From Rhodospirillales bacterium (lineage in GTDB: Bacteria; Pseudomonadota; Alphaproteobacteria; Rhodospirillales; 2-12-FULL-67-15): a DNA stretch of 64,000 nucleotides. This document shows, piece by piece, positions 3,992 through 51,662 of this stretch. The first letter of the stretch is position 1. Every line of letters begins with the position of its first letter. The DNA is taken from assembly GCA_016872535.1 (NCBI GenBank), contig VGZQ01000002.1:9514-73513 (forward strand), read 5' to 3'. The notes beneath the pieces were generated by a model. The model saw only the letters and a program-made list of their open reading frames with translations. It was not told the DNA's origin and searched no databases. The translations under genes and the position numbers were made by a program.

Positions 3992-5239
3992 TTAGTCGGC
4001 GTCGAGACCGTAGGCCGAATGCAGCGCGCGGACGGCGAGTTCGGTGTATTCCTCGGCGATCAGAACGCTGATCTTGATTTCCGACGTGGTGATCGCCTGG
4101 ATGTTGATGCCTTTCTCGGCGAGCGCGCGGAACATGCCGAGCGCGACGCCGGCGTGGCTGCGCATGCCGACGCCGATAACCGAGACTTTGACCACGTTCT
4201 TGTCTTGGATCAGCCCGGCGTAGCCGAGGTCCTTCTTGCGCGCCTCCAGGATGGCGACGGCGCGATCCAGGTCCGCCTTGGTCACGGTGAAGGTGAGATC
4301 CGTGGTCTTGCCGTCGGCGGAGACGTTCTGGACGATCACGTCGACGTTGACATTGGCGTCCGCGAGCGGGCCGAATACGGCCGCGGCCACGCCGGGTCGG
4401 TCGGCAACCGCCGCGAGCGTGATTTTCGCTTCATCGCGGCTGTAGGCGACGCCGCTGACCAGGGCTTTTTCCACGATTTCGTCCTCGTCCACCACCAGGG
4501 TTCCGGGCGCGTCGGAGAAACTCGACAGCACCTGCAGCCGGACGCCCTGCTTCATCGCCAGTTCGACCGAGCGCGTCTGCAGAACCTTCGCGCCGACCGA
4601 AGCCATTTCGAGCATTTCTTCGTAGGTGATTTTATCGAGCTTCCTCGCTTTGGCAACGATGCGCGGATCGGTGGTGTAAACCCCGTCCACGTCCGTATAA
4701 ATGTCGCAGCGGTCGGCCTTGAGCGCGGCCGCCAGCGCCACCGCGCTGGTGTCGGAGCCGCCGCGCCCGAGCGTGGTCACCCGCCCGTTTCGCGTCACGC
4801 CCTGAAAACCGGGCACGATCGGCACCTCGCCCGCGGCCATCGCCGCCAGCAAATCCTCGGCCGCGATCGAGTCGATGCGCGCCTTGCTATGGGCCTCGTC
4901 GCTCATGATCGGAATTTGCCAGGATAGCCAGGAGCGCGATTTAAGGCCGAGCGCTTGCAGCGCGAGCGCGGTCAGGCCCGTGGTCACCTGTTCGCCGGTT
5001 GCCACCACCACGTCGTATTCGCGATCGGCGGCGAGCGCCGCGCCGGGGTCGTGCGCCGCGCGACCGCGGAGTTCGTTGACCCAGGTGACCAGTTGGTTGG
5101 TGACCCCGGACATGGCCGAAACCACCACCGCAACCTCGTGACCGGCGTCGCGCTCGCGCTTGACGCGCGCGGCCACCGCCCGGATGCGCTCCAGGTCCGC
5201 GACCGAGGTGCCGCCGAATTTCATCACGATCCGCGCCAT
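3992..5239 (-). CDS. lysC: Aspartate kinase
   Basis: MARIVMKFGGTSV, TLGRGGSDTSAVA, DVDGVYTTDPR, two ACT domains ending TSEIKISVLI. Start at ATG 5239. Confidence 0.97.
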   Translation of the reverse strand: MARIVMKFGGTSVADLERIRAVAARVKRERDAGHEVAVVVSAMSGVTNQLVTWVNELRGRAAHDPGAALAADREYDVVVATGEQVTTGLTALALQALGLKSRSWLSWQIPIMSDEAHSKARIDSIAAEDLLAAMAAGEVPIVPGFQGVTRNGRVTTLGRGGSDTSAVALAAALKADRCDIYTDVDGVYTTDPRIVAKARKLDKITYEEMLEMASVGAKVLQTRSVELAMKQGVRLQVLSSFSDAPGTLVVDEDEIVEKALVSGVAYSRDEAKITLAAVADRPGVAAAVFGPLADANVNVDVIVQNVSADGKTTDLTFTVTKADLDRAVAILEARKKDLGYAGLIQDKNVVKVSVIGVGMRSHAGVALGMFRALAEKGINIQAITTSEIKISVLIAEEYTELAVRALHSAYGLDAD

Positions 5240-14946: not shown

Positions 14947-15420
14947 TCAGGGCGCCCGTGGCGACCGGCGGGCCGCCCAAAAGCAGAACGCCGGAATGGC
15001 GATCCATTGCAATAACGGCGTAAGACCGGTCCCCCACGGCGGCACCACCGGCATCGCCTCGGCATAAGCCCAGCTTTGGCGCACCACGGTGTTGAGCCAT
15101 TCGCTGTAGATCGTGTAGGCGATTCCGGCGGTGACGGTCACGGCGGCGACCGTGCCGAACCGCTCCGCCGGCCAGCGGGACCGGCCGCACGCGACCAGCG
15201 CCAAGGCCAACGCCGCCGCCGCGATGCCGAGATCGCCGGCGGTGCAGTGAACGACCGCCCACGCCATTTCGCCGGGCGAGGCGGTCGTCCACAGAGTGTA
15301 GAGCGGCAGCTGCGCGGATTCCCAAACGAGATGGCCGACGGCCCCCGCCGCCAGATAGCGGCGGAAAGCCGCCAGCCAGTTCGCCGGCGAATCCAAAGTC
15401 GTCGCCATCCGTATCATCAA
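14947..15420 (-). CDS. Hypothetical multi-pass membrane protein
   Basis: About four hydrophobic segments; HLVWESAQLPLYTLW, VVHCTAGD, YSEWLN, SWAYAEAMPVVP..GTGLTPLLQW. Resembles uncharacterised proteins I associate with metal-resistance clusters. Confidence 0.7.
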   Translation of the reverse strand: MMIRMATTLDSPANWLAAFRRYLAAGAVGHLVWESAQLPLYTLWTTASPGEMAWAVVHCTAGDLGIAAAALALALVACGRSRWPAERFGTVAAVTVTAGIAYTIYSEWLNTVVRQSWAYAEAMPVVPPWGTGLTPLLQWIAIPAFCFWAARRSPRAP

Positions 15421-15435
15421 AGGCCTCCCGGCACT

Positions 15436-15891
15436 TCACCTTCCGATGTCGATCACGTGCTGAAAGGTTCCATCGGGAAGGCGAATATCGATTCGCCACC
15501 GCCCGGACATGGTGACCGGTCCCGTCGCGCGATACACGCCGGGCGCCAGATGTTCGACCGTCGCACGGGTTGGAGGCATCGCATGCCCGACCATTTCAAA
15601 ACCGACATCGACCCGGGCATCTTTCGGCATGGGGCCATTGTTTCGATCCTGGACCTGGAATTCGATGCGGACTATGCCCATCGGCGTCTCGATCAGGCGC
15701 CCGCGCACGGTCCACGCCGGGGTCCGCCCCTCGAAGGTGCCGGCGGCAGCAATGGTCCCGAGCGCTGGCGCGTTCGGCCGGCCGGCCGACGAACCGCTGC
15801 CGTCCCCGAAAAATAGGACAACGGCAAGAAAGCTTCCGGCCACCGCCAGAATTAATCCGAAGACGATGAAGAAGAACGCTCGCGACAGCAT
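15436..15891 (-). CDS. YtkA/FixH-like exported protein
   Basis: N-terminal TM anchor, then FEMVGHAMPP and GVYRA...MSGRWRIDI, typical of the YtkA-like Ig fold. Confidence 0.75.
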   Translation of the reverse strand: MLSRAFFFIVFGLILAVAGSFLAVVLFFGDGSGSSAGRPNAPALGTIAAAGTFEGRTPAWTVRGRLIETPMGIVRIEFQVQDRNNGPMPKDARVDVGFEMVGHAMPPTRATVEHLAPGVYRATGPVTMSGRWRIDIRLPDGTFQHVIDIGR

Positions 15892-15969
15892 TGGTCTACC
15901 CGCTCGCAATCTTTGCCGGATTCGGGGCCACCCGGCTATGGCCGCGTATCCGCGGGGTCGCGCCCGACC

Positions 15970-16767
15970 TCAAGGCGGCGCCGCCCACGCATTATCCTGT
16001 TGACCGGATTTTCCCAGGCACTCGTAACGCCAGATCGCCGCCGGCGGCAAGTTCAGCCATATATGGTCCGCACGGATGACTTTCAATTTCAGCCGCCGAA
16101 TGATCGGTTCGGAAACCGGCGGAAACGGGCCATATGTAAACTGGATGAACGGTCCTTCGGTCGCCATCAACCGAAAAGCGGATTTCAGGATCGCGCCCTG
16201 CTGACGGATGCTCATGAACAAAAACGGCAGACTGGACACGACGGCGGCAGCCCGGGTCACGCCTGCCTCCCGTGCAATCTTCCCGAGTCGCGACGCGTTG
16301 CTTTCGACGACATGAGCCCCTCGGAAACGGCGGCGCAGATGTTCCGCCATGCGACTGTCGAACTCCACGATCAACATCCGCTCCGGCCGAACGCCGGAAT
16401 TGATGAGTGCTTCCGTCACCGACCCCGTTCCGGCGCCCAATTCGACGATCGTGCCCCTGGTTCGCCCGTCGATCTGCCGCGCCAGCGCCTCGGCGAGCGG
16501 ACGGCCGCTGGGTAAGACCGAGCCCGTGCGCAGCGGGTTGCGGAACCAGCGGGACAAGAACAGCCAAGCCGGAACGGCCAGATCGGTCATCACGCCGTTT
16601 CGAACCGACGCCAGCGGCATTCCATCGACAGCTTGCGCCGTCATGTCTTGTACTCGACGGTCGTAATCATGTCGGCCGCCATGTGGCGCGGGTTGTGGTA
16701 ATGGAGCGCCCGGTGCCGCGGTAGCAACGGGCGAGGCCAAGAACTGAGGGCGGGAAAGCGTGGTCAT
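15970..16767 (-). CDS. pmtA: Phospholipid N-methyltransferase-like protein (rhizobial PmtA type) with N-terminal extension
   Basis: FLSRWFRNPLRTGSVLPSG, IVELGAGTGSVT, VVSSLPF, FIQFTYG, WLNLPPAAIWRY; GGGAG SD upstream of ATG 16767. Confidence 0.75.
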   Translation of the reverse strand: MTTLSRPQFLASPVATAAPGAPLPQPAPHGGRHDYDRRVQDMTAQAVDGMPLASVRNGVMTDLAVPAWLFLSRWFRNPLRTGSVLPSGRPLAEALARQIDGRTRGTIVELGAGTGSVTEALINSGVRPERMLIVEFDSRMAEHLRRRFRGAHVVESNASRLGKIAREAGVTRAAAVVSSLPFLFMSIRQQGAILKSAFRLMATEGPFIQFTYGPFPPVSEPIIRRLKLKVIRADHIWLNLPPAAIWRYECLGKSGQQDNAWAAPP

Positions 16768-16844
16768 GACAAAACTCCCAGCTGTTAAGAACGGCGCCAC
16801 CGGCCGACGCCGATGGCGCCCGACACCATGCGGCGCCGGTTCAA

Positions 16845-17225
16845 TCAGTCCTGGGTCGTAAGTTTGGGAGGTCGGTATTCGGGGTGGACGATCCGCGCTG
16901 GTCCAAGATCGATGGCCGCCCACCGCACGACGCCCGCTTCGTCGTCGGACACGACCGCACTTGCGCGCGGCGGTCCGGCAAACGAGCAGTGGGCGCTGGC
17001 TTCGCACTGCTGGACGATGTTGTGGCTGTTTTTGGGCAAATCGTGGTCACTCGATCCGGCAACGCCGATGACAGCCATCCTGCTCGCATCCGCTTGGGCG
17101 GACGAAAGGTGGCCGTAATGAAGGAGAACGCCGAACGCAACCAGCAGACCCATAACGGCGCCAAGCCAACGCCCCCGCGCCGGCCAGCAACCGCGTCGCC
17201 TCCTGTCGTCGTCTCCGCCCGTCAC
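16845..17225 (-). CDS. Small exported-type leader ORF 3 (CxxxxxC, C-terminal PEYRPPK); candidate stalling uORF
   Basis: GTG start; basic N-terminus plus hydrophobic segment, QQCEASAHCSF, ends HPEYRPPKLTTQD, 77 nt before pmtA. Confidence 0.6.
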   Translation of the reverse strand: MTGGDDDRRRRGCWPARGRWLGAVMGLLVAFGVLLHYGHLSSAQADASRMAVIGVAGSSDHDLPKNSHNIVQQCEASAHCSFAGPPRASAVVSDDEAGVVRWAAIDLGPARIVHPEYRPPKLTTQD

Positions 17226-17454
17226 GTCCCGATCCCTTACGTCCGCCGATCTCGGATGTGCCCCGGAAAACCCTTACGATGGTGACATCCCGCAGTCAAA
17301 ATATATCCCTGGGCCCGACGCAAATCGAGAGCCTCCGTTTACTTCCATATGCCGTGGGGCGTGTGGCTCCGTTGATCTCGCGAATTGCGAAACCACACCC
17401 CCGACTTGCCGCCGGATTTAGTCCACGATCGATATCAACCGGCGTCGCAGATCC

Positions 17455-18003
17455 TCATTGCTTGGGCATGCCCGGCATGGGTGCCGCCCCGGACCCTTGC
17501 CCCATACCCTGACCTGGCCCCATTCCTGACCCGGGCCCCATACCCTGTCCCATGCCTTGGCCCATCGTGCCCTGGCCCTGGGGCATCGATCCGCCGCCCA
17601 TCATTCCCCCGCCCATATGGCCGGGCGGCATCATTCCGGGTTGCATCATTCCCTGGCCCGTCATACCCCCGCCGCCGGGCGCCGCCGCGCCGGGCTGAAT
17701 GGCGACGCCGAGCTTGTCGAGAGTCGCCTTGTCGGGCTCGCCGGTGACGGGCAGATGGTGCTGCGACTGGTACTTGCGGACCGCCTCGCGCGTCGCGCCG
17801 TCGAGCACGCCATCGGTCTTGACCGCGATCCCTTGCTTGTTGAGCGCCTCCTGCAGCGCCTTGATGGTGGCCGAAGAAAGCCCCGAAGGCGCGGTTGGCG
17901 CCGGCGCCTGGGCGAAAACGGGAACCGGCGTCCCTCCGGTCACTCCGGCCGCCAGCACAACGGCCGCAATCGCAATCAAACGCGGGATCATCGAAGTCTT
18001 CAT
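17455..18003 (-). CDS. Exported peptidoglycan-binding domain protein with Met/Gly/Gln-rich tail
   Basis: Signal peptide; IKALQEALNKQG..DGVLDGATREAVRKYQSQHHLPVTGEPDKATL (PG_binding_1); tail of GM(G/P)QG repeats; AAGGA SD. Confidence 0.85.
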   Translation of the reverse strand: MKTSMIPRLIAIAAVVLAAGVTGGTPVPVFAQAPAPTAPSGLSSATIKALQEALNKQGIAVKTDGVLDGATREAVRKYQSQHHLPVTGEPDKATLDKLGVAIQPGAAAPGGGGMTGQGMMQPGMMPPGHMGGGMMGGGSMPQGQGTMGQGMGQGMGPGSGMGPGQGMGQGSGAAPMPGMPKQ

Positions 18004-18056
18004 GGCACGTTTCCTTTCATGGTTGGCGAAAATCCCCTCCAGGCACGCACACGACC

Positions 18057-18767
18057 TCAAAACCAGAATCGCACGCCGGCGACGACCGAGCGGTTGTCCG
18101 CCCGGTTCCCCTCTTCGCGCGCGTAGTCGGCGGCCTGGCCGAGCTTCCGCTCCCAATGGAAGCCGACGTAAGGCGCAAATTCGCGGACGATTTCGTAACG
18201 CAAGCGCAGGCCGGCGCTGACTGAATCGACGCCGGAGCCGACGTGACGCTCCTTGACGCTTTGCACCGCCAAATTGATCTCGGCGCTCGGTTGCAGGATC
18301 AATTTCTGGGTGACGAGCCAGTCGGTCTCGCCCTTGAGCCGGGCCGACACCTCGCCCTCATGGCTGACGAAGGCCGCGGCGTCGACCTCGATCATGTATG
18401 GCGCCGTTCCTTGCGCGCCGAACACGGCGAAGGTGCGATCGGGGTCCGGCTTGATGTCCTGGCGCAAACCCACCACCGCGTCGAAAAAATCCGAGACTCG
18501 GCGGCTGTAGAGAAGCTGGAATTCCCCTTTTTCCAGTTTGCCGTCGTTGGGCTTTTCGCCTTCGGCCTTGATTCGAATCTTGTCGTCGTCGGTGCCGATC
18601 CAGCCTTCGGCGTCCCAGGCGAGATTGTCCTTGCCGGTGCCGCTCCGGTATTCGAGCTGCTCGGCCTGAACGAACGTAAATATCTGTCCGGGCTCGGCGG
18701 CATCCACCGGCGACACGGACAAGGGCGCGACGATCACGGCGGCGAGCAAACGGTACATTTTCGTCAT
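18057..18767 (-). CDS. copB: Copper resistance protein B (outer-membrane barrel)
   Basis: EQLEYR, WDAEGWIG.D.DK, QLLYSR, FDAVVGLRQD, GLRLRYEIVREFAPYVG, GVRFWF; ATGA overlap with the copA stop. Confidence 0.93.
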   Translation of the reverse strand: MTKMYRLLAAVIVAPLSVSPVDAAEPGQIFTFVQAEQLEYRSGTGKDNLAWDAEGWIGTDDDKIRIKAEGEKPNDGKLEKGEFQLLYSRRVSDFFDAVVGLRQDIKPDPDRTFAVFGAQGTAPYMIEVDAAAFVSHEGEVSARLKGETDWLVTQKLILQPSAEINLAVQSVKERHVGSGVDSVSAGLRLRYEIVREFAPYVGFHWERKLGQAADYAREEGNRADNRSVVAGVRFWF

Positions 18768-20482
18768 GTGCTCGCCCCCTTCGGCCCAACAATGAAGCGA
18801 GTCATCATCCCCGATGCCATGTGGTACATGAGGTGGCAATGGAACGGCCAATCGCCCGGTTCGTCGGCGGTGAGCAGGGCCGAGACTTCTTGCCCCGGCG
18901 GCACGACGACCACGTGCTTGAGCGGCCGGCGGTCGGTTTGCCCGTTCTCCACCTCGACGAACATCCCGTGCAGGTGCATCGGGTGCGCCATCATGGTTTC
19001 GTTGACGAACTTGATCCGCACCCGTTCGCCGTATTTGACGCGGATCGGTTCTTCCTTGCCGAACGGGCGGCCGTTCAGGTTCCACATGTAGCGATCCATG
19101 ATCCCGGTGAGGCGGACCTCAATCTCCTGGCTCGGTTCGCGCGCGTCCGCGTTCTTAGCCGCCGAACGGAGATCGGCGTAGGCGAGCGCCTTCTGGCCCG
19201 GCGGCGTCGCGGCATCCGCCCAGCCGAATGGCCGCTTGCCGCTGGCGTCTTGGGTCGTTGGCATGGCGCCGTGCCCCATGGCCGAATGGTCCATCCCGGG
19301 CATGGACATCTTGCTGTGGTCCATGCCGGACATGGCGCCGCCTTGGCCCATCGCCCCATGGCCCATCGCCGAGTGATCCATACCGGCATGCGCCGCACCC
19401 ATGTCGGCCATGCTGAGGATGGTGCGCGGGCGCTGTTCGGGGATCGCCCCTTCCATCCCTTCGCGGGGCGCGAGCGTCGCCCGGGCATAGCCCGAACGGT
19501 CGATCGGCTCGGCGAAGACGGTAAAGGCCTTGTCCTCGCGCGGCAGCACGATCACGTCGTAGGTCTCGCCGACGCCGAAGCGGAACTCGTCGACGCGGAC
19601 CGGCTGGACGTTCTGGCCGTCCGCCGCAACCACCGTCATCGGCAAGCCCGGAATCCGCACGTCGAAGAAGCTCATGGCCGAGGCGTTGATGAAGCGCAGC
19701 CTGACCCGCTCGCCCGGCTTGAACAGCGCCGTCCAGTTGTCGCGAGGGCCCTTTCCGTTGACCAGAAAAGCGTAGCCGGTGACGTCGGCAAGATCGGTCG
19801 GGTCCATCCGCATTTCGCCCCATTCGAGGCGGTCCTTGAGCGCGGCGCCGAAGCCGTCGCGGTCCGCGTCGCGGAAAAAGTCGACCAGCGTCCGCTTGCC
19901 CCGGTTGTAATACCCGGCGTTGGCCTTGAGCTTGGCCATCACCCGCATCGGGTCTTCCTGGGTATGGTCGGAAAGCGCCACCACATAGTCGCGGTCGGCG
20001 CGGACGGGATCGCGGCCCCGGGGCTCGATCACGATTCCCCCGTACATGCCGGCCTGCTCCTGCAAGCCGGAATGGCTGTGGTACCAATAGGTGCCGCTCT
20101 GGCGGAGCTTGAAGCGGTAGGTGAAGGTCTCGCCCGGCGGGATCGGAGCAAATCCGTTGAATCCCGGCGCGCCGTCCATGTCGCCGTCGAGCAGCAGCCC
20201 GTGCCAGTGGATCGAGGTCGATTCCTTGAGACGGTTGGTGGCCTGGATGGTCACTTCTTCGCCTTCGCGCCAGCGCAACGTCGGCGCCGGAACCGAACCG
20301 CCCATCATGACAGCGTTGCTCTCGATTCCGTCGACGACGATCCGGCCCGCCTCGACGGCAATCGCGTATTCTTTCGTCGCCGAGGCGAAGCTGATCCGGC
20401 CGGGATAGACGGCGACGAGGCCGGCCGCGCCGGCGAGCTTGAGCGCGTTCCGCCGGGAAAGGCCGTGAAGATCGGTGGACAT
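18764..20482 (-). CDS. copA: Copper resistance multicopper oxidase (Tat-exported)
   Basis: SRRNALK Tat motif, SIHWHG, YWYHSHS, MDHSxM repeats, HPMHLHG, HCHLMYHMASGM. Confidence 0.96.
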   Translation of the reverse strand: MSTDLHGLSRRNALKLAGAAGLVAVYPGRISFASATKEYAIAVEAGRIVVDGIESNAVMMGGSVPAPTLRWREGEEVTIQATNRLKESTSIHWHGLLLDGDMDGAPGFNGFAPIPPGETFTYRFKLRQSGTYWYHSHSGLQEQAGMYGGIVIEPRGRDPVRADRDYVVALSDHTQEDPMRVMAKLKANAGYYNRGKRTLVDFFRDADRDGFGAALKDRLEWGEMRMDPTDLADVTGYAFLVNGKGPRDNWTALFKPGERVRLRFINASAMSFFDVRIPGLPMTVVAADGQNVQPVRVDEFRFGVGETYDVIVLPREDKAFTVFAEPIDRSGYARATLAPREGMEGAIPEQRPRTILSMADMGAAHAGMDHSAMGHGAMGQGGAMSGMDHSKMSMPGMDHSAMGHGAMPTTQDASGKRPFGWADAATPPGQKALAYADLRSAAKNADAREPSQEIEVRLTGIMDRYMWNLNGRPFGKEEPIRVKYGERVRIKFVNETMMAHPMHLHGMFVEVENGQTDRRPLKHVVVVPPGQEVSALLTADEPGDWPFHCHLMYHMASGMMTRFIVGPKGAST

Positions 20483-20496
20483 GGCGCGATCCCTCC

Positions 20497-21042
20497 TCAC
20501 CATCCGCCGCTAAAGTCGAGCTTGCCGACCATGCCCGCCTCGTAATGGCCGGGAATGGTGCAGGCGAATTCGAGTTCTATCGCCTTGGAGAATTTCCAGA
20601 CCAGCTCGGCCTGCTTGCCCGGCTCAACCAGCACGCTGCCGGTTTCCGGGCCGTGGTCGTGCGCGGCCATGCCCATCTTGGCGTGGTCCATCTTCATCAT
20701 GTCCTTGTTGATCCCGGTCGCCGTAATCATGCCGTGGTCCATCATCATCTTCATCATGTCCTGGTGTTTGGCGTGGTCGTTGGGCTGGCCGAGCGCGAAC
20801 TCGTGCAAAAGATCGCCCTTGTTGACGATGACGAAGCGGACCGTCTCGCCCGCCTTCACGGCGACGGTTTCCGGTTCGTAAAGATTGTCCTTCATGATGA
20901 TGGTGACGGTGCGGGTCGTGGACGTGGCTTTGGCCACTTCGCCGAAGGGGTGTTTCTGGGCCGGGCCGGCGAGGGCGGCGCCGGCCCCAAGCGTTATGAG
21001 GCCGAAAACGGCGGCGACGAAACTTGAGCGAATCATATGCAT
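20497..21042 (-). CDS. Cupredoxin (CopI-like) with Met/His-rich insert
   Basis: Signal peptide; LLHEF, HQDMMKMMMDHGM...MMKMDHAKMGMAAHDHG, FACTIPGHYEAGM type-1 copper loop. Confidence 0.92.
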   Translation of the reverse strand: MHMIRSSFVAAVFGLITLGAGAALAGPAQKHPFGEVAKATSTTRTVTIIMKDNLYEPETVAVKAGETVRFVIVNKGDLLHEFALGQPNDHAKHQDMMKMMMDHGMITATGINKDMMKMDHAKMGMAAHDHGPETGSVLVEPGKQAELVWKFSKAIELEFACTIPGHYEAGMVGKLDFSGGW

Positions 21043-21156
21043 GACGCGTGCAATCCTTGTCTGGTGTTGAAGTCGAACGGATGGCGCTCACGCGCGAGCT
21101 GCGGCCCGGCCGTTCAAGCCCGGCACGGCTAAAGACGCGCGAAGAGCGGATTTAGA
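21043..21156 (-). promoter_or_regulatory. 114-nt structured leader, copy A (between uORF stop and cupredoxin ATG)
   Basis: 108/114 identical to 23330-23443 (hand count); contains GAACGG/CCGTTC and GCTC/GAGC nested stems and the SD AAGGA. Confidence 0.8.
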
Positions 21157-21504
21157 TCAGGAAGCGCGCGGAGGGCGCAGCGGCGGCGCGGACGAGCCGA
21201 GCGGAACGAAGGTGTCGGGCGCCAGCACCGAAACGGTGGCTGGCGCGCGGAGGACGGTTCCGGACGGAATCGGCGTCACGGCCGAAAACGAGCAGCCGGG
21301 CGGGCAGCAGCGGTCGATGCCGCCAGCAGAGTTTTCGTCGCACGAACCCAGCAGGGCTTCGGCATCGCTCCCGACGTGCGCGGACGCGGAAACTATCGGC
21401 GAGCCTGCCGTTTCGTGCCCGGGCGCGGCAACGCCGGCCAAGCCCCACAGCAGGGTCGCGGCGACCGCAAAGGCGGAAACGATTTTACGGAACCGGCGCG
21501 ACAC
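21157..21504 (-). CDS. Small exported-type leader ORF 2 (CC-x3-C, C-terminal PPLRPPRAS); CutF/CruR-like candidate
   Basis: GAGGA SD then GTG 21504; MSRRFRKIVSAFAVAATLLWGLAG signal-like N-terminus, DRCCPPGCSF, SSAPPLRPPRAS. Confidence 0.75.
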   Translation of the reverse strand: MSRRFRKIVSAFAVAATLLWGLAGVAAPGHETAGSPIVSASAHVGSDAEALLGSCDENSAGGIDRCCPPGCSFSAVTPIPSGTVLRAPATVSVLAPDTFVPLGSSAPPLRPPRAS

Positions 21505-21668
21505 GCAAATATTTCCTCGGACGTTCCTCGCCCACGAGCGGGCGAGAGGCGTGGATAGCAAAAGCGGATTCTAAAGACAAGCCGAAAAAGGGCCATCTTC
21601 AATCACAAGCGCGAAATCCGTATTCCCGCCAAAAACTGTTTCCCATTGCAAACTCCATGGTCTTCGTC

Positions 21669-23261
21669 TCACGTCCTCACGGCGCGAAGGGTCGCCCAGA
21701 GGGCGGCGGCAAAGCCGAGAACGCCGAGCAGCGGCACGTCGGCATAGTCGCCGAAGACGTGAGGGCCGATGTCGTACTGGAGGAGCAAGGAAGAAGCGAC
21801 GAATAAACCCATCGACACCAGCGCGAACGCCACCCGCCGGCCGCCGCGCTCCACGGCGTCCTCGACGCGATCGATACCGTGAAGACGCAAGCCGAACTCC
21901 GGTCTTCCTCCTTCGCCCTGGAGCCGGTGGAGCCAGGCGCCAAGCAGCGCCGGTAAATCCTCCGCGGTCATTGCGGCTTCGCTCTTCAGCCGCTCCATCT
22001 TGCCGGTGCTCTGCGATTGCCGGAGGGTAGTCTCGAATATCTTTTCGCCCTTGGCCAACAGTTCCTTGACGAGGATGTATTCGGGATCGAGGCTTCGTAC
22101 CGTGCTTTCGATCAGAAACATGGTGCGCAAAAGGACGAGCAGATTAGGCGGAATGGTCACACTTTCGCCGCGCCCGATCCGCAAGATTTGCAGAAAGGCC
22201 TGGGCGATCGACAGATCGTTGAGCGGCAACGCGGCGTAATCGGCCATGATCTCGTCGAAGGCGCGCCGGAATTCCGCGCGATCGACCGCCGCGTCGATCA
22301 CGCCGAGGGCAATCGCCGTGTCGAGCAGCCAAGCCGAGTCTTGATGGGCGAATGCCTGCGTGAACAGCGCAAGATTTCGACGCGTTGCGCGGTCGAGATA
22401 GCCGGTCAGACCGAAATCGTGAAAGCAGATGCGTCCCGAGTTCATGATAAACAAATTGCCCGGGTGCGGATCGCCGTGGAAGACGCCGAGCACGAAGAAC
22501 TGGTGGAGATAGGCGTCAACGAAATTATCGGCCAAGCGCCGTCTGTCTTCGTCGTTAATCGGATCGTCAACGCGGCGGCCACTGCTCATCTCCTGCACCA
22601 GGACTGACTCGGCGCCGAGTCCGTCGATCACTGTCGGTACATGCACCGTCTTCCAATCCTTGAAGGCCTCCTTGAAACGCCGGGCGTTGCGTGCCTCCCG
22701 CCGGAAGTCGGTCTCGTTGCGGAGATTGGTCCAGGTCTCCTCCACCAGGCGAAGCGGGTGGTAGCGGCGGAGACGAGGGGCCAGAAGTTCAGTCGCGCGC
22801 GCGAACATCCGCAGCATGCGCATGTCCCGGCGGATTTGATCCTGAATCCCCGGTCTGCGCACTTTGACGACCACCATCCGTCCGTCGTGGAGGCGTGCTT
22901 TGTGCGCCTGCGCGATGGAAGCGGCGGCGAAGGGGACCGGATCGAATTCCGCAAACAACTCGGCGATCGGCCGGCCGAGCGCCGTTTCGATCTCGCGTAT
23001 CGCCTTCGCGGCGGGAAAAGGATTTACATGCTCATGAAACCGTTGCAGAGCCTTGATGTAGTGGTCCGGCAGCATTTCCTGGTGCAAGCTCAGGATTTGG
23101 CCGAACTTGACGAACGTCGTGCCAAGCCGTTCGAGGGTCACGGCGAATCGCTCCGCCAGCGTCGGCAAACGCCGGGGACGAAACAGGTACAGATAGAGGG
23201 CGTGAACCGCGAAATTCGCCGCCGCGAACCCAACGCGCAGCAACCGGCCGATAAACATCAT
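21669..23261 (-). CDS. ABC1/UbiB/AarF family atypical kinase
   Basis: LERLGTTFVKFGQILS, FAAASIAQAHKA, VVVKVRRPG, DFRREA, VFHGDPHPGNL, HDFG, C-terminal TM helices. Start re-placed at ATG 23261. Confidence 0.9.
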   Translation of the reverse strand: MMFIGRLLRVGFAAANFAVHALYLYLFRPRRLPTLAERFAVTLERLGTTFVKFGQILSLHQEMLPDHYIKALQRFHEHVNPFPAAKAIREIETALGRPIAELFAEFDPVPFAAASIAQAHKARLHDGRMVVVKVRRPGIQDQIRRDMRMLRMFARATELLAPRLRRYHPLRLVEETWTNLRNETDFRREARNARRFKEAFKDWKTVHVPTVIDGLGAESVLVQEMSSGRRVDDPINDEDRRRLADNFVDAYLHQFFVLGVFHGDPHPGNLFIMNSGRICFHDFGLTGYLDRATRRNLALFTQAFAHQDSAWLLDTAIALGVIDAAVDRAEFRRAFDEIMADYAALPLNDLSIAQAFLQILRIGRGESVTIPPNLLVLLRTMFLIESTVRSLDPEYILVKELLAKGEKIFETTLRQSQSTGKMERLKSEAAMTAEDLPALLGAWLHRLQGEGGRPEFGLRLHGIDRVEDAVERGGRRVAFALVSMGLFVASSLLLQYDIGPHVFGDYADVPLLGVLGFAAALWATLRAVRT

Positions 23262-23329
23262 TTCATGGCATCCATGTCTGCAGGGGAAGCATCCGATTGA
23301 AAGGTGAACTTCGAGCGGATCGTACGCAT
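23258..23329 (-). CDS. 23-aa mini-ORF MRTIRSKFTFQSDASPADMDAMK, putative translational coupler
   Basis: ATG at the same position as the cupredoxin ATG in leader copy A; first codons resemble MHMIRSSF; its TGA overlaps the kinase ATG (ATGA). Confidence 0.55.
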   Translation of the reverse strand: MRTIRSKFTFQSDASPADMDAMK

Positions 23330-23443
23330 GACGCGTGCAATCCTTGTCTGGTGTTGAAGTCGAACGGATGGCGCTCGCGCGCGAGCTGCGGCCCGGCCGT
23401 TCAAGCCCGGCGCGGCTCAAGACGCGCGCAAAACGGATTTAGA
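23330..23443 (-). promoter_or_regulatory. 114-nt structured leader, copy B
   Basis: Direct repeat of 21043-21156, same length, 6 substitutions. Confidence 0.8.
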
Positions 23444-23830
23444 TCAGGAAACGCGCGGAGGACGCAAAGGCGGCGCGGATGAGCGGAGCGGAACGAAAGC
23501 GTCCGGCGTCAGGGCTGGAATGCCGGATGATTCGTGAAAAACGATTCCCGAAGGTGCGGCTGTCATCGCCGAAAAGGCGCATTCCGGCGGACAGCAGCGG
23601 TCGAATCCGCCGCCGTAACCGTGGAGGGAATTTCGGTCGCACGAACCCGGGGCGGCGTCGACGACGTGTCCGCCTTGCGCGGACGCAGCGATTCCGCCGG
23701 TCGACGCTATCATCGGCGAACCCGTCATTTCGTGTCCTGGAACAACTGCGCCTGCGAATCCCCAAAGCAAGGTCGCAGTGACCGCGAACATGGAAACGAT
23801 TCGCCGGATTTGGCGCGGCAGACGGATCAA
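23444..23830 (-). CDS. Small exported-type leader ORF 1 (CC-x3-C, C-terminal PPLRPPRVS); paralog of leader ORF 2
   Basis: GGAGAG SD then TTG 23830; RRIVSMFAVTATLLWGFAG, DRCCPPECAF, SSAPPLRPPRVS. Confidence 0.75.
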   Translation of the reverse strand: MIRLPRQIRRIVSMFAVTATLLWGFAGAVVPGHEMTGSPMIASTGGIAASAQGGHVVDAAPGSCDRNSLHGYGGGFDRCCPPECAFSAMTAAPSGIVFHESSGIPALTPDAFVPLRSSAPPLRPPRVS

Positions 23831-23912
23831 CTTTCTCTCCGGGACTTGCCCTCGATCATGAAATGACGGACGTTGCGTTCTGTCAAGCGCGCCCGCGAAG
23901 GACAGCCGCAAG

Positions 23913-39407: not shown

Positions 39408-39971
39408 TCAGGTCGATTCCAGCTCGCTGTCCCAATAGAGGAAGTCGCGCCAGCTTTCGTGCAGGTAGTTGGGCGGGAAACCCCGGCCGTTTTCCTGCAA
39501 CTCGACGTTGGTCGGCGCGTACGGTTTGCGCCGGAGCGCGAGCCCGACCTCGTTCGGCAGGCGGCGGCCCTTGGTCATGTTGCACGGCTCGCACGCGGTC
39601 ACCACGTTCGACCAGACCGTGCGGCCGCCGCGCGAGCGCGGCACCACGTGGTCGAAGGTCAGGTGTTCGGTCGGAAAATGGCCGCCGCAGTACTGGCAGC
39701 GGAACCGGTCGCGCAGGAATACGTTGAACCGGGTGAACGCCGGCCGGCGCGAGACGGGCACGAATTCCTTGAGCGCGATCACGCTCGGCAACTGGATGCG
39801 CGCGCTCGGCGAGCGCACGACGCGGTCGTATTCGGAAATCACGCTGACGCGGTCGAGAAACACGGCCTTGACCGAATCCTGCCACGACCACAGCGACAAC
39901 GGGAAATAGCTGAGCGGCCGAAAGTCGGCGTTCAACACCAAGGCCGGGAAACTGTTGACGGCGATACTCAC
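39408..39971 (-). CDS. HNH endonuclease family protein (conserved alphaproteobacterial type)
   Basis: PALVLNADFRPLSYFPLSLW, PAFTRFNVFLRD, CQYCG, LTFDHVVPRSRGG, NVVTACEPCN. Confidence 0.93.
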   Translation of the reverse strand: MSIAVNSFPALVLNADFRPLSYFPLSLWSWQDSVKAVFLDRVSVISEYDRVVRSPSARIQLPSVIALKEFVPVSRRPAFTRFNVFLRDRFRCQYCGGHFPTEHLTFDHVVPRSRGGRTVWSNVVTACEPCNMTKGRRLPNEVGLALRRKPYAPTNVELQENGRGFPPNYLHESWRDFLYWDSELEST

Positions 39972-41992: not shown

Positions 41993-42361
41993 ATGCGGGA
42001 CTACGCCGAACCGAAGCCGTTGATTTGGCGCGCGACCTCGAAGGCGGACTTCATGGCTTTTCCGGCGACCGTGCAACGCGAGATGGGATACGCGCTCTTT
42101 CTCGCACAAATGGGCAAGCGTCATCCGATCATGGCGAAGACGCTGAAAGGCTTTGGCGGCGGCACGGTGATGGAGGTCAGGGAGAGCCATCAGGGTGACG
42201 CATATCGCGCCGTTTATACGGTGCGACATGCCGATGCAATCTATGTCCTTCATGCCTTTCAAAAGAAGTCGAAGAAGGGCGTTGCGACGCCGAAGGCCGA
42301 CATGGCGCTGGTCCGAAAGCGATGGGCCGATCTGATCGCAGACATGGAGAAGCGAAGATGA
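41993..42361 (+). CDS. RelE/HigB-like type II toxin (Gp49/DUF891 type)
   Basis: FP..VQREMGYALFLAQMG, LKGFGGGTVMEV, YRAVY.VR...IYVLHAFQKKSK.G..TP; toxin precedes antitoxin. Confidence 0.88.
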   Translation: MRDYAEPKPLIWRATSKADFMAFPATVQREMGYALFLAQMGKRHPIMAKTLKGFGGGTVMEVRESHQGDAYRAVYTVRHADAIYVLHAFQKKSKKGVATPKADMALVRKRWADLIADMEKRR

Positions 42362-51173: not shown

Positions 51174-51662
51174 ATGACCATCACCACCCGATTCGCCAGC
51201 CGTTTGGCGGTTGTCGCCGCTCTTGCCGTCGCCGGCGCGGCCGCCGCCGAATCCCCCGTTCCCTATCCCGACGGCTACCGCGCTTGGCGCCATATCAAGT
51301 CCATGGTCATCCTGCCCGGCCATCCGCTCGCCGACCCGTTCGCCGGCGTCCATCACGTCTATGGCAACGACAAGGCGCTCCAGGGCCTTGCCGGCGGCGC
51401 ATACGCCGACGGTGCCGTGTTCGTGTTCGATCTGCTCGAAGGCGGGGTCAAGGACAACGCCGTGGTCGAAGGCCCGCGCAAGCTGATCGGCGTCATGCAT
51501 CGCAACGCCAAGGCCTATGCCGCGACCGGCGGCTGGGGCTTCGAGGGATTCGCCGGGGACGCGCGCGACAAGCGCTTGGCATCGGACGGCGGCAAGTCGT
51601 GCTTCGCCTGCCACGAACAGCAGAAGGCGAAGGCGTTCGTGTTTACCGAAAACCGGAAATAA
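51174..51662 (+). CDS. Cytochrome P460 / c'-beta family periplasmic heme protein
   Basis: Signal peptide; YPDGYRAW.H, GVHHVYGN, DGAVFVFDL, GGWGFEGF, C-terminal CFACH heme motif. Confidence 0.88.
   Translation: MTITTRFASRLAVVAALAVAGAAAAESPVPYPDGYRAWRHIKSMVILPGHPLADPFAGVHHVYGNDKALQGLAGGAYADGAVFVFDLLEGGVKDNAVVEGPRKLIGVMHRNAKAYAATGGWGFEGFAGDARDKRLASDGGKSCFACHEQQKAKAFVFTENRK

Follow-up and report, generated by a model that had tools for sequence, protein, structure and literature searches.

In the SecM-secA and TnaC-tnaA systems, C-terminal arrest holds the ribosome at the end of a leader open reading frame (ORF); arrest on SecM melts the structure that hides a Shine-Dalgarno sequence, and arrest on TnaC blocks Rho. 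The signals sensed are secretion force and tryptophan, respectively, and neither leader is related in sequence to the small ORFs described below. Copper-sensing arrest-peptide leaders were described between 2021 and 2025, CutF in 2021–2025 and CruR in 2022, and their mechanisms have been established experimentally (PMC9973294; PMC9426467; bioRxiv 10.1101/2025.02.05.636593). CutF and CruR are the sole two such leaders to have been studied by experiment, and they exhibit opposite behavior. Here we analyze a 64,000-nucleotide (nt) stretch of DNA from a Rhodospirillales bacterium (contig VGZQ01000002.1, positions 9,514 to 73,513; referred to as the window), in which three small ORFs, designated ORF1, ORF2 and ORF3, head modules within a copper resistance (cop) locus. 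By analogy with the characterized systems, we conclude that these ORFs are probably cis-acting and most likely copper-sensing arrest leader peptides of the CutF/CruR type.

CutF of Rhodobacter capsulatus is the small first gene of cutFOG, and its product combines an N-terminus of the Sec type with a Cys motif and, at the C-terminus, a proline motif (PMC9973294; PMC8456105; bioRxiv 10.1101/2025.02.05.636593), an organization found also in the ORFs analyzed here. It precedes a multicopper oxidase exported by the twin-arginine translocation (Tat) pathway, and relatives of ORF3 are likewise located 82 nt ahead of such an oxidase. CutF acts only in cis, and an RNA structure hides the Shine-Dalgarno sequence of the gene that follows it; the corresponding features of the present ORFs are predicted or proposed. 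A survey identified 5,334 CutF-like proteins in 29 clusters ahead of many metal genes (PMC9973294). The DUF2946 prototype is CruR of Bordetella pertussis (Bp2923; PMC9426467). It heads copper-related operons and has a strictly conserved distance between its motifs, as do the ORFs here, and its long spacer and C-over-G (C>G) tract at the ORF end recur in the family to which ORF1 and ORF2 belong. CopL of Xanthomonas and Stenotrophomonas (cited in PMC9973294 and PMC9426467) is a small Cys-containing ORF directly 5' of copA-copB, a position resembling that of the present leaders, and is needed in cis for copper-induced expression; neither CutF nor CopL acts in trans. In tblastn searches of plasmids with ORF2 and ORF3, no sequence similarity to CopL was detected, and the first target here is a CopI-type cupredoxin rather than copA.

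Two probable leader-peptide families with cysteine pairs and R-P-P motifs

The three ORFs are all on the minus strand. ORF1 (23444..23830) encodes 128 amino acids (aa) from a TTG start at 23830, upstream of which is the Shine-Dalgarno-like sequence GGAGAG; CCPPEC is located at 23579-23596 and R-P-P at 23456-23464, with three codons left before the stop. ORF2 (21157..21504) encodes 115 aa from a GTG start at 21504, with GAGGAA upstream, CCPPGC at 21292-21309, and R-P-P at 21169-21177, again with three codons left before the stop. ORF3 (16845..17225) encodes 126 aa from a GTG start at 17225, with AAGGGA upstream, CEASAHC at 16986-17006, R-P-P at 16866-16874, and codons that can act as an anti-Shine-Dalgarno sequence at approximately 16851-16871. 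Re-derivation from the DNA gave the C-termini PPLRPPRVS, PPLRPPRAS and PEYRPPKLTTQD, respectively. The coordinates, strand, Cys motifs and C-termini given in a prior sequence-only reading of the window were reproduced without change, as were the distances that it gave to the following ATG (114, 114 and 77 nt) and the architecture that it proposed for all three ORFs (basic and hydrophobic N-terminus, Cys pair, C-terminal PP).

In a rule-based scan of the 64 kb, six-frame ORFs of 60–170 aa had to combine PP within the last 15 residues with a motif of Cys or His and an N-terminus that is basic and hydrophobic; ORF1, ORF2 and ORF3 were the sole matches. The scan rules are essentially the published CutF-like rules (PMC9973294), all of which describe ORF1–ORF3 and no other window ORF. 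Every member of the two leader families defined below contains a 15-residue hydrophobic core (mean Kyte-Doolittle value 1.9–2.6) preceded by two to six basic residues.

ORF1 and ORF2 belong to one family (family A), for which a word-indexed search identified six relatives, a profile search of 1.84 billion cluster representatives only six, adding five further relatives, and a search of JGI metagenomes one member; 185,579 GTDB species-representative genomes contained none. Family A is rare, as is the second family (family B), represented by ORF3, and tblastn searches with ORF2 and ORF3 found no matches among 72,556 plasmids. In 12 members of family A that are 30–86% identical, residues C66, C71, F73, A75 and R110-P111-P112 are invariant, and A-P-P-L ahead of R-P-P and an R and an S behind it are nearly so. 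The Cys pair has the form C-x4-C and in most members is CCPxGC, which contains CXXXC as well; the second Cys of CCPxGC is Ser or Gly in proteins P0012–P0014, and distant members carry His-rich tracts ahead of the Cys motif. Despite indels elsewhere, the second Cys of the pair is separated from R-P-P by 38 residues in 11 of the 12 proteins, and three residues remain between the PP and the stop in 11 of 12. Codons for APPLRPPR differ synonymously between loci (CGT/CGC/CGG; CCT/CCC/CCG/CCA; TTG/CTG/CTT/CTC), and the last 60 nt of the leader are 85–97% identical between loci whose leader bodies are just 64–67% identical. The synonymous variation combined with a conserved leader 3' end points to selection on the peptide.

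Each of the three relatives of ORF3 carries CEASAHCSFAGPP and (E/D)YRPPKLPI. The Cys pair of family B is C-x5-C (CEASAHC), and its distance to R-P-P is 37 residues in all four proteins measured; four or six residues follow R-P-P, the motif that is invariant in both families. The Cys pair, a C-S-F sequence and R-P-P of the two families can be aligned with one-residue gaps, but the profile-profile probability is 3–5%, which is not significant. Homology between A and B was rejected on this value, and they are treated as two families of like geometry. Judged by these patterns, ORF1, ORF2 and ORF3 are real conserved genes under constraint at the peptide level.

The leader bodies (21217-21504 and 23504-23830 in the window, and those of loci L002, L006 and L013) fall into two old allelic types with 64–67% nucleotide identity, and the genomes bearing these two types have copI genes that are 90–97% identical. 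Compared with the flanking sequence, the N-terminal two-thirds of the leader is evolving, or being exchanged, at a much higher rate.

Target genes, promoter-like elements and spacers

The operon behind ORF2 (17455..21042, minus strand) consists of copI (20497-21042), copA (18764-20503, a multicopper oxidase matching TIGR01480 at 1e-215), copB (18057-18767, PF05275) and a gene for a peptidoglycan (PG)-binding protein of the PG_binding_1 family (17455-18003) with a Met/Gly-rich tail. The same gene order follows the leader in L002, L004, L006, L011 and L013. The cupredoxin was above the cut-offs of Pfam Cupredoxin_1 and Copper-bind; it did not reach the cut-off score of NCBIfam NF051440 or NF047895. 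NF051440, the best NCBIfam model, covers residues 4-177 on profile positions 3-178 of 180 with 205.8 bits against a cut-off of 280, and the gene is therefore best called CopI-like. The tail of the PG-binding protein is long (MGQGMGQGMGPGSGMGPGQGMGQG...PGMPKQ) and is similar to copper-binding tracts rich in methionine; the protein has conserved counterparts in L002, L006, L010 and L017. Pfam and NCBIfam assignments for the genes behind all three leaders agreed with those made earlier from the letters of the window.

A family-A leader directly precedes a CopI-like cupredoxin gene in L002, L004, L006, L008, L011 and L013, with copA next where the contig reaches further (L002, L004, L006 and L011), and in L007, L009 and L012 the ORF after the leader also translates to a CopI-like protein. 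No gene of the unit precedes the leader at any locus of either family, and leaders are positioned 109–117 nt (family A) or 77–82 nt (family B) ahead of the copper genes. L002 and L004 share the order Methyltransf_3 gene, leader, copI, copA, copB, PG-binding gene, 150-aa membrane protein gene, radC, map; from these comparisons this order is the ancestral state and ORF2 heads the canonical ancestral operon. The closest relative, L006 (copI 97% identical in nucleotide sequence), contains one leader, of the ORF2 type, and the ORF3 module, without a kinase gene or a second family-A leader. No MerR, CsoR, response-regulator or histidine-kinase domain was present among the 30 window ORFs scanned, as had been noted before for copper-responsive regulators of the block, and no gene of these types was found within 10 kb on either side of the locus in L006.

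The sequence-only reading regarded the locus as a single regulon block. The cassettes instead appear to be three separate transcription units, each with its own promoter-like element, to which promoter function was assigned by conservation across loci. The ORF1 element (TTGACA-17 nt-TTTCAT, 23858..23886, minus strand) is conserved ahead of the leader in L002, L013 and L006 and is located within an 82-nt divergent region shared with the Methyltransf_3 gene. The ORF2 element (TTGTCT-17 nt-TATCCA, 21552..21580, minus strand) has an arrangement conserved in L007, L008 and L009 and is followed by a hairpin in the 5' untranslated region (21527-21546, minus strand). The ORF3 element (TTGACT-17 nt-TAAGGG, 17271..17299, minus strand) is conserved in L001, L014 and L015, where it reads TTGAC(G/T), 17 nt, TAAGAA/TAAAAA. 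The 17-nt spacing between hexamers is ordinary, MerR-type promoters typically having 19–20 nt. A consensus promoter scan at a strict threshold returned no sigma-70-type site. Terminator-like sites occurred at the chance rate, none of the 10 being within a spacer. Two other elements considered for the spacers were rejected: a promoter, since the TTGAAC in the window hairpin loops is not conserved in other loci, and an intrinsic terminator, since the hairpins lack a following U-run. An imperfect inverted repeat, TGACAGA-N8-TCCGTCA (23864-23886, minus strand; TGACATA-N8-CCTGTCA in L006), overlaps the -35 hexamer and spacer of the ORF1 promoter-like element and could be an operator for an unlinked regulator.

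Spacers of family A are 109–117 nt long in all 11 loci and share a layout in which a linker of 9–18 nt is followed by a hairpin of 50–68 nt, a C-rich tract, AAGGA and the ATG. In the window, spacer 1 (114 nt, 23330..23443) has its hairpin at 23377-23429 and spacer 2 (114 nt, 21043..21156) at 21085-21148, each followed by a C-rich tract and an AAGGA Shine-Dalgarno sequence, in spacer 2 that of copI; both are on the minus strand. The hairpin (-23 to -44 kcal/mol) is present at the same position in 11 of 11 loci, with an apical stem whose sequence differs by locus, and in nine of the 11 its z-score against dinucleotide shuffles is -1.4 to -3.7. MAFFT alignment with RNAalifold recovered the outer GC helix alone; the inner hairpin was too diverged, and folding was therefore performed sequence by sequence. 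A C>G tract of +20 to +40% extends from approximately the last 100 nt of the leader to just past its stop in all 11 loci, and most have a second such tract after the hairpin. No Rfam family reached its gathering score in the window, the sole weak match being a chance CRISPR-DR16 inside the kinase gene.

Spacer 3 (77 nt, 16768..16844, minus strand) contains GC-rich hairpins and a GGGAG Shine-Dalgarno sequence at 16775-16779. Family-B spacers are 77–82 nt long, and in five of five sequences folding predicts base pairing between the Shine-Dalgarno sequence and the 30 nt that end the leader (probability 0.89–0.98), in a region with minimum free energy z-scores of -1.7 to -2.7; the corresponding values for ORF3 are 0.89 and -2.2 to -2.3. 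The pairing partner in L001, L014 and L015 is AAACUCC, the three codons directly after R-P-P. In the lineage of the window and L006 the leader C-terminus has changed (KLTTQD) together with the Shine-Dalgarno sequence (UAGGAG to UGGGAG), and pairing is retained through CCCAG/CUGGG and CUCCCA/UGGGAG.

In keeping with the CutF/CruR logic, a ribosome that has the second Pro codon in its P site and a footprint with a downstream reach of approximately 14 nt would extend over the last three codons as far as the stop in family A, and over the anti-Shine-Dalgarno codons in family B. Ribosome masking was modeled with a footprint at R-P-P; equilibrium folding is a crude proxy for what is a co-transcriptional, ribosome-coupled process. 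Upon masking, the unpaired fraction of the Shine-Dalgarno sequence increased from 0.01 in free RNA to 0.32 in L001, from 0.00 to 0.32 in L014, from 0.01 to 0.28 in L015, and from 0.12 to 0.51 in L006; for ORF3 of the window the two values were 0.13 and 0.14.

Rearrangements that changed the genes behind the leaders

The kinase gene behind ORF1 encodes an ABC1/UbiB-family protein of 530 aa (21669..23261, minus strand; PF03109, E = 1e-67). The ATG 114 nt after ORF1 (23329), from which the kinase had been thought to start, instead opens a 23-codon relic ORF (23258..23329, minus strand; MRTIRSKFTFQSDASPADMDAMK, then stop) whose first eight codons are a copy of the start of copI. We place the kinase start at the ATG at 23261 because homologues are 529–534 aa long, and the TGA of the relic ORF overlaps this codon (ATGA). 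Spacers 1 and 2 are 94.7% identical, whereas the leader bodies of ORF1 and ORF2 are 64% identical; the ORF1 body has 81–85% nucleotide identity to the leaders of L002 and L013, and the ORF2 spacer is 73% identical to that of L006. The near-identity of the two window copies extends from the 3' end of the leader through the spacer to codon 8 of copI, and its restriction to these parts indicates gene conversion or recombination. A recent tandem duplication was rejected, given that the two bodies represent the two old types, with ORF1 grouping with L002 and L013 and ORF2 with L006. By these sequence comparisons, ORF1 is located behind the ancestral promoter, and the spacer and eight copI codons that follow it are a converted copy.

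A leader-headed kinase was found in this genome alone among the relatives recovered; L006, L002, L004 and L013 have one family-A leader and no kinase gene, and the GTDB scan gave no match to the kinase. Its closest homologue (74% identity), in L017, is part of a cop locus and directly follows the PG-binding gene, and kinases of this subfamily may repeatedly be carried along in cop loci. In L017 (1-2471) the kinase gene is followed by a C-terminal fragment of copB and then by a further small ORF, Cys-rich and signal-like, with DDCCAHEPSCD that is ended by the contig end. Three substitutions in copy 1 relative to copy 2 within 23305-23342 (minus strand; CAT to CGT, ATG to ACG, ATT to ATC) strengthen a local hairpin that pairs the Shine-Dalgarno and AUG region of the relic ORF with its codons 2–4; pairing of the copy-1 Shine-Dalgarno sequence with downstream sequence is predicted with a probability of 0.74.

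Behind ORF3, the ATG at 16767, 77 nt after the leader, belonged to a multicopper oxidase gene, since deleted, and is fused in frame to a PmtA/OlsG-like methyltransferase gene (15970-16644, minus strand, with its own ATG at 16644); it is not an ATG of the methyltransferase as previously read. The relic (16645..16767, minus strand) retains the first ~21 codons of the oxidase, including a degenerate Tat signal (SRPQFL), and the remainder is oxidase 3'-end sequence read in another frame, with the junction at approximately 16705-16711. In L001, the ORF3 homologue is located 82 nt ahead of an intact 502-aa Tat-exported multicopper oxidase gene, which is followed by the methyltransferase gene and a YtkA-like gene. 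The window is collinear with L001 over 4181-4365 and then from 5741 onward, resuming ~70 nt before the oxidase stop. The methyltransferase gene directly follows ORF3 because the intervening oxidase gene was deleted, and L006 has the same deletion. From this arrangement we infer that the ancestral target of ORF3 was the multicopper oxidase gene, which the methyltransferase and YtkA-like genes followed.

A third rearrangement is present in L010 (1367-2276), where copI-copA-copB have been deleted. A fusion of the CopI signal peptide with the PG-binding protein is encoded there, and its distance from the leader ahead of it has remained 109 nt. The cis linkage of leader, spacer and first codons has therefore been kept through three independent rearrangements (ORF1, ORF3 and L010). 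The proposal that kinase and methyltransferase are ancestral, dedicated targets of their leaders found no support; the present arrangement arose from a copying rearrangement in one case and a deletion in the other.

The GC content at third codon positions (GC3) is 0.76 for the kinase gene and 0.70 for the methyltransferase gene, compared with 0.84–0.86 for copI and copA. Across the ORF1-kinase (21669-23830) and ORF3-methyltransferase (15970-17225) modules GC3 is 0.64–0.76, and the GC content of the window dips to 0.61 at 22–24 kb. The lower GC3 and the GC dip suggest that both modules were horizontally acquired. The methyltransferase gene is followed by genes for a YtkA/FixH-like protein (15436-15909) and a conserved membrane protein of 157 aa (14947-15420), both on the minus strand. 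The latter belongs to a group of proteins of ~150–160 aa outside any Pfam family, and in every relative, as in the window, the gene of this group is the last of the cop locus (9143-9595 in L002 and 2303-2791 in L010). In the window and in L006 the ORF3 module is inserted between the membrane-protein gene and the PG-binding gene; the YtkA-like gene is intact in the window and cut to 92 aa in L006 (15573-15851).

Elsewhere in the window, a Gp49-like (HigB-type toxin) ORF (41993-42361, plus strand) and an HNH endonuclease ORF (39408-39971, minus strand) are located amid housekeeping genes (rpsD, glutaredoxin, BolA-like, and a class I tRNA-synthetase-domain gene) and could represent a small insertion of mobile or toxin-antitoxin type. 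The ORF at 51174-51662 (plus strand) codes for a member of the cytochrome P460 family (PF16694, 3e-28).

Alternative readings, proposed mechanism and implications

Several observations weigh against assigning ORF1, ORF2 and ORF3 to the CutF/CruR type. CutF has been described as a DUF2946 member, but the three ORFs gave no match to the Pfam DUF2946 model (PF11162) at E ≤ 1 and no meaningful match to Pfam or NCBIfam, so that DUF2946 membership is not detectable for the window ORFs. P0006, alone among the 12 family-A members, matched PF11162 along its full length (E = 0.007, profile positions 3-115 of 117), which speaks for a link to the known family, but with 17.5 bits it is below the gathering score of 23.7 bits, and no family-B member matched; on sequence grounds we treat the two families as divergent relatives or analogues of CutF and CruR and not as demonstrable DUF2946 members. 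The motifs also differ: CutF contains CXXXC and PEPEGPPPRL, in which the PPP run is needed together with EF-P, and CruR contains CXXC and a RAPP that is 45 residues away and three residues from the end, whereas the present families combine C-x4-C or C-x5-C with R-P-P at a distance of 38 or 37 residues. The N-termini were judged signal-like by a heuristic of hydrophobicity and charge alone, and GC3 is uninformative for the three small ORFs and not gene-like. ORF1 has Glu in CCPPEC where every other family-A member has Gly, and its codon-position GC is flat; it may be decaying. The predicted RNA structures add to these points. Masking opened the Shine-Dalgarno sequence in four of the five family-B sequences but not in ORF3 of the window. 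The window spacer hairpins of family A (z = -0.55 and -1.43) are not more stable than shuffles, and pairing between the leader end and the Shine-Dalgarno sequence is predicted in approximately six of 11 family-A sequences and exceeds shuffles only in the window copies and L012. Masking had no consistent effect in this family, and the Shine-Dalgarno sequences of both window copies remained paired. The translational attenuation proposed in the sequence-only reading fits the pairing predicted for ORF3, but CutF-type unmasking is not consistently supported for ORF1 and ORF2; the broader proposal of copper-sensing leaders holds in silico for architecture, invariant motifs and position, and not for DUF2946 membership or for the kinase and methyltransferase as ancestral targets.

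Further differences from the characterized systems concern the RNA and the direction of control. The anti-Shine-Dalgarno sequence of family B is inside the last codons of the leader, whereas CutF has an intergenic stem-loop, and the ~115-nt spacer of family A has a long hairpin that does not contain the Shine-Dalgarno sequence, unlike CutF. CruR turns off an uptake transporter under copper through arrest relief and Rho, whereas the genes here are for resistance and should turn on; CruR moreover functions without its signal peptide (PMC9426467).

The possibility that the ORFs are chance open frames in GC-rich DNA draws on the many overlapping spurious ORFs in the region and on the GC3 values, but chance frames would have neither homologues with residue-specific conservation and synonymous codon variation nor have been singled out by the rule-based scan; the conservation pattern rules them out, and we give this explanation almost no credence. 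A different reading takes the products to be stable exported copper-binding proteins, chaperones or buffers acting in trans, whose position reflects ordinary operon membership. The signal-like N-terminus, the conserved Cys residues and the His-rich tracts of distant members would suit such a role, and CutF itself was first conjectured to be a chaperone. The most conserved parts of the leaders, however, are the extreme C-terminus and the distance between Cys and R-P-P, with free variation across the remainder of the mature region; conservation extends to spacer length and hairpin; three independent rearrangements kept leader, spacer and first codons together; and CutF and CopL do not act in trans. 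Function as proteins in trans is accordingly improbable, and we return to cis-acting arrest leaders as the reading that best accommodates these features.

Among readings that retain such leaders, one keeps the same sensor for ORF1 and ORF2 but places their output at the level of transcription, which Rho would terminate within the 114-nt spacer in the manner of CruR or TnaC: arrest at R-P-P would block Rho loading on the C-rich leader end, release would lead to termination before copI, and the conserved hairpin would be a pause or spacing element. The C>G tract at the leader end in 11 of 11 family-A loci, most with a second after the hairpin, is consistent with this, as are the spacer of 109–117 nt, which resembles the 162 nt of CruR and not most CutF-like spacers, the match of R-P-P plus three residues and stop to CruR geometry, and the lack of support for Shine-Dalgarno unmasking in the window copies of family A. 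Against it, Pro, Ala and Ser codons would by themselves produce C>G, the Shine-Dalgarno sequence is mostly paired in free RNA (unpaired 0.00–0.39), hinting at a translational layer, and the model needs arrest that is enhanced by copper, as in CutF, whereas CruR turns genes off with copper. Rho as the output is conceivable; we consider it rather unlikely overall, yet for ORF1 and ORF2 no less plausible than unmasking. Somewhat easier to entertain, but still the less favored outcome, is that the leaders of copI and of the ancestral oxidase are functional and that neutral scars are all that links the kinase to ORF1 and the methyltransferase to ORF3, with ORF1 a decaying duplicate, the kinase on its own signals or barely expressed, and no kinase in the copper regulon. 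The ORF1-kinase arrangement in this genome alone (one leader and no kinase in L006, L002, L004 and L013), the Gly-to-Glu change and flat GC3 of ORF1, the copy-1 substitutions that strengthen the hairpin burying the Shine-Dalgarno sequence and AUG of the relic ORF, and the GC3 of kinase and methyltransferase, suggestive of acquired DNA, speak for scars. Yet ORF1 retains every invariant residue bar that Gly and the exact 38-residue spacing, and the ATGA overlap of relic ORF and kinase is a classic coupling arrangement; the closest kinase homologue is also within a cop locus, directly after the PG-binding gene; and the oxidase deletion has persisted, being common to L006, with the methyltransferase and YtkA-like genes already part of the oxidase operon in L001.

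The anatomy, conservation, spacing, rearrangements and predicted RNA pairing of the cis-acting leaders are consistent with a scheme in which metal sensing and ribosome arrest would set the regulatory output. The nascent leader would be targeted through its basic and hydrophobic N-terminus. With the ribosome at R-P-P, the Cys pair 38 residues (ORF1, ORF2) or 37 residues (ORF3) behind would be at or just beyond the tunnel exit, where metal bound to the pair could alter the duration of arrest. The arrested ribosome would cover the last codons of the leader. In ORF3 these codons are the predicted partner of the next Shine-Dalgarno sequence, so that arrest would open translation; unmasking is the likelier output for this leader. 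In ORF1 and ORF2, arrest would either open long-range pairing across the hairpin or keep Rho off the C-rich RNA. The ORF3 cassette would now feed the methyltransferase directly after loss of the oxidase, and the relic ORF could couple the ORF1 cassette to the acquired UbiB-like kinase via the ATGA overlap.

Relative to the published leaders, new elements are the two families outside the Pfam model, which may already figure among the 5,334 published CutF-like proteins; the R-P-P motif with its exact 37- or 38-residue spacing; the conserved ~115-nt hairpin spacer and the CopI-type cupredoxin as first target; and the locus of three cassettes with rearrangements that put a kinase and a methyltransferase behind sensors. 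Kinases or methyltransferases are not mentioned as neighbors in the CutF survey and a related paper, and a literature search found nothing on UbiB in cop operons. The 37/38-residue spacing suggests a test of how far a sensing motif must be from the peptidyl-transferase center, and a single locus with two cassette types, three target modules and relatives in un-rearranged states is a natural experiment.

The three rearrangements in which leader, spacer and first target codons stayed together point to a functional module and illustrate a route by which a regulon gains genes. Should the kinase and methyltransferase links be non-functional, they are a warning for annotation, as apparent first genes can be relics of deleted or duplicated copper genes. 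A bolder view, which we offer tentatively and think unlikely on present evidence, is that leader, spacer and first codons form a portable sensor cassette that recombination moves ahead of new genes; here it would have brought a UbiB-family kinase, via the coupled relic ORF, under copper-dependent control by the nascent peptide alone, and a deletion would have subjected a PmtA/OlsG-like lipid methyltransferase to control of this kind. If this is true, the recurrence of the kinase subfamily in the cop locus of L017 would be functional and not accidental, and copper stress would be linked to quinone or membrane-lipid remodeling without a copper-sensing transcription factor.

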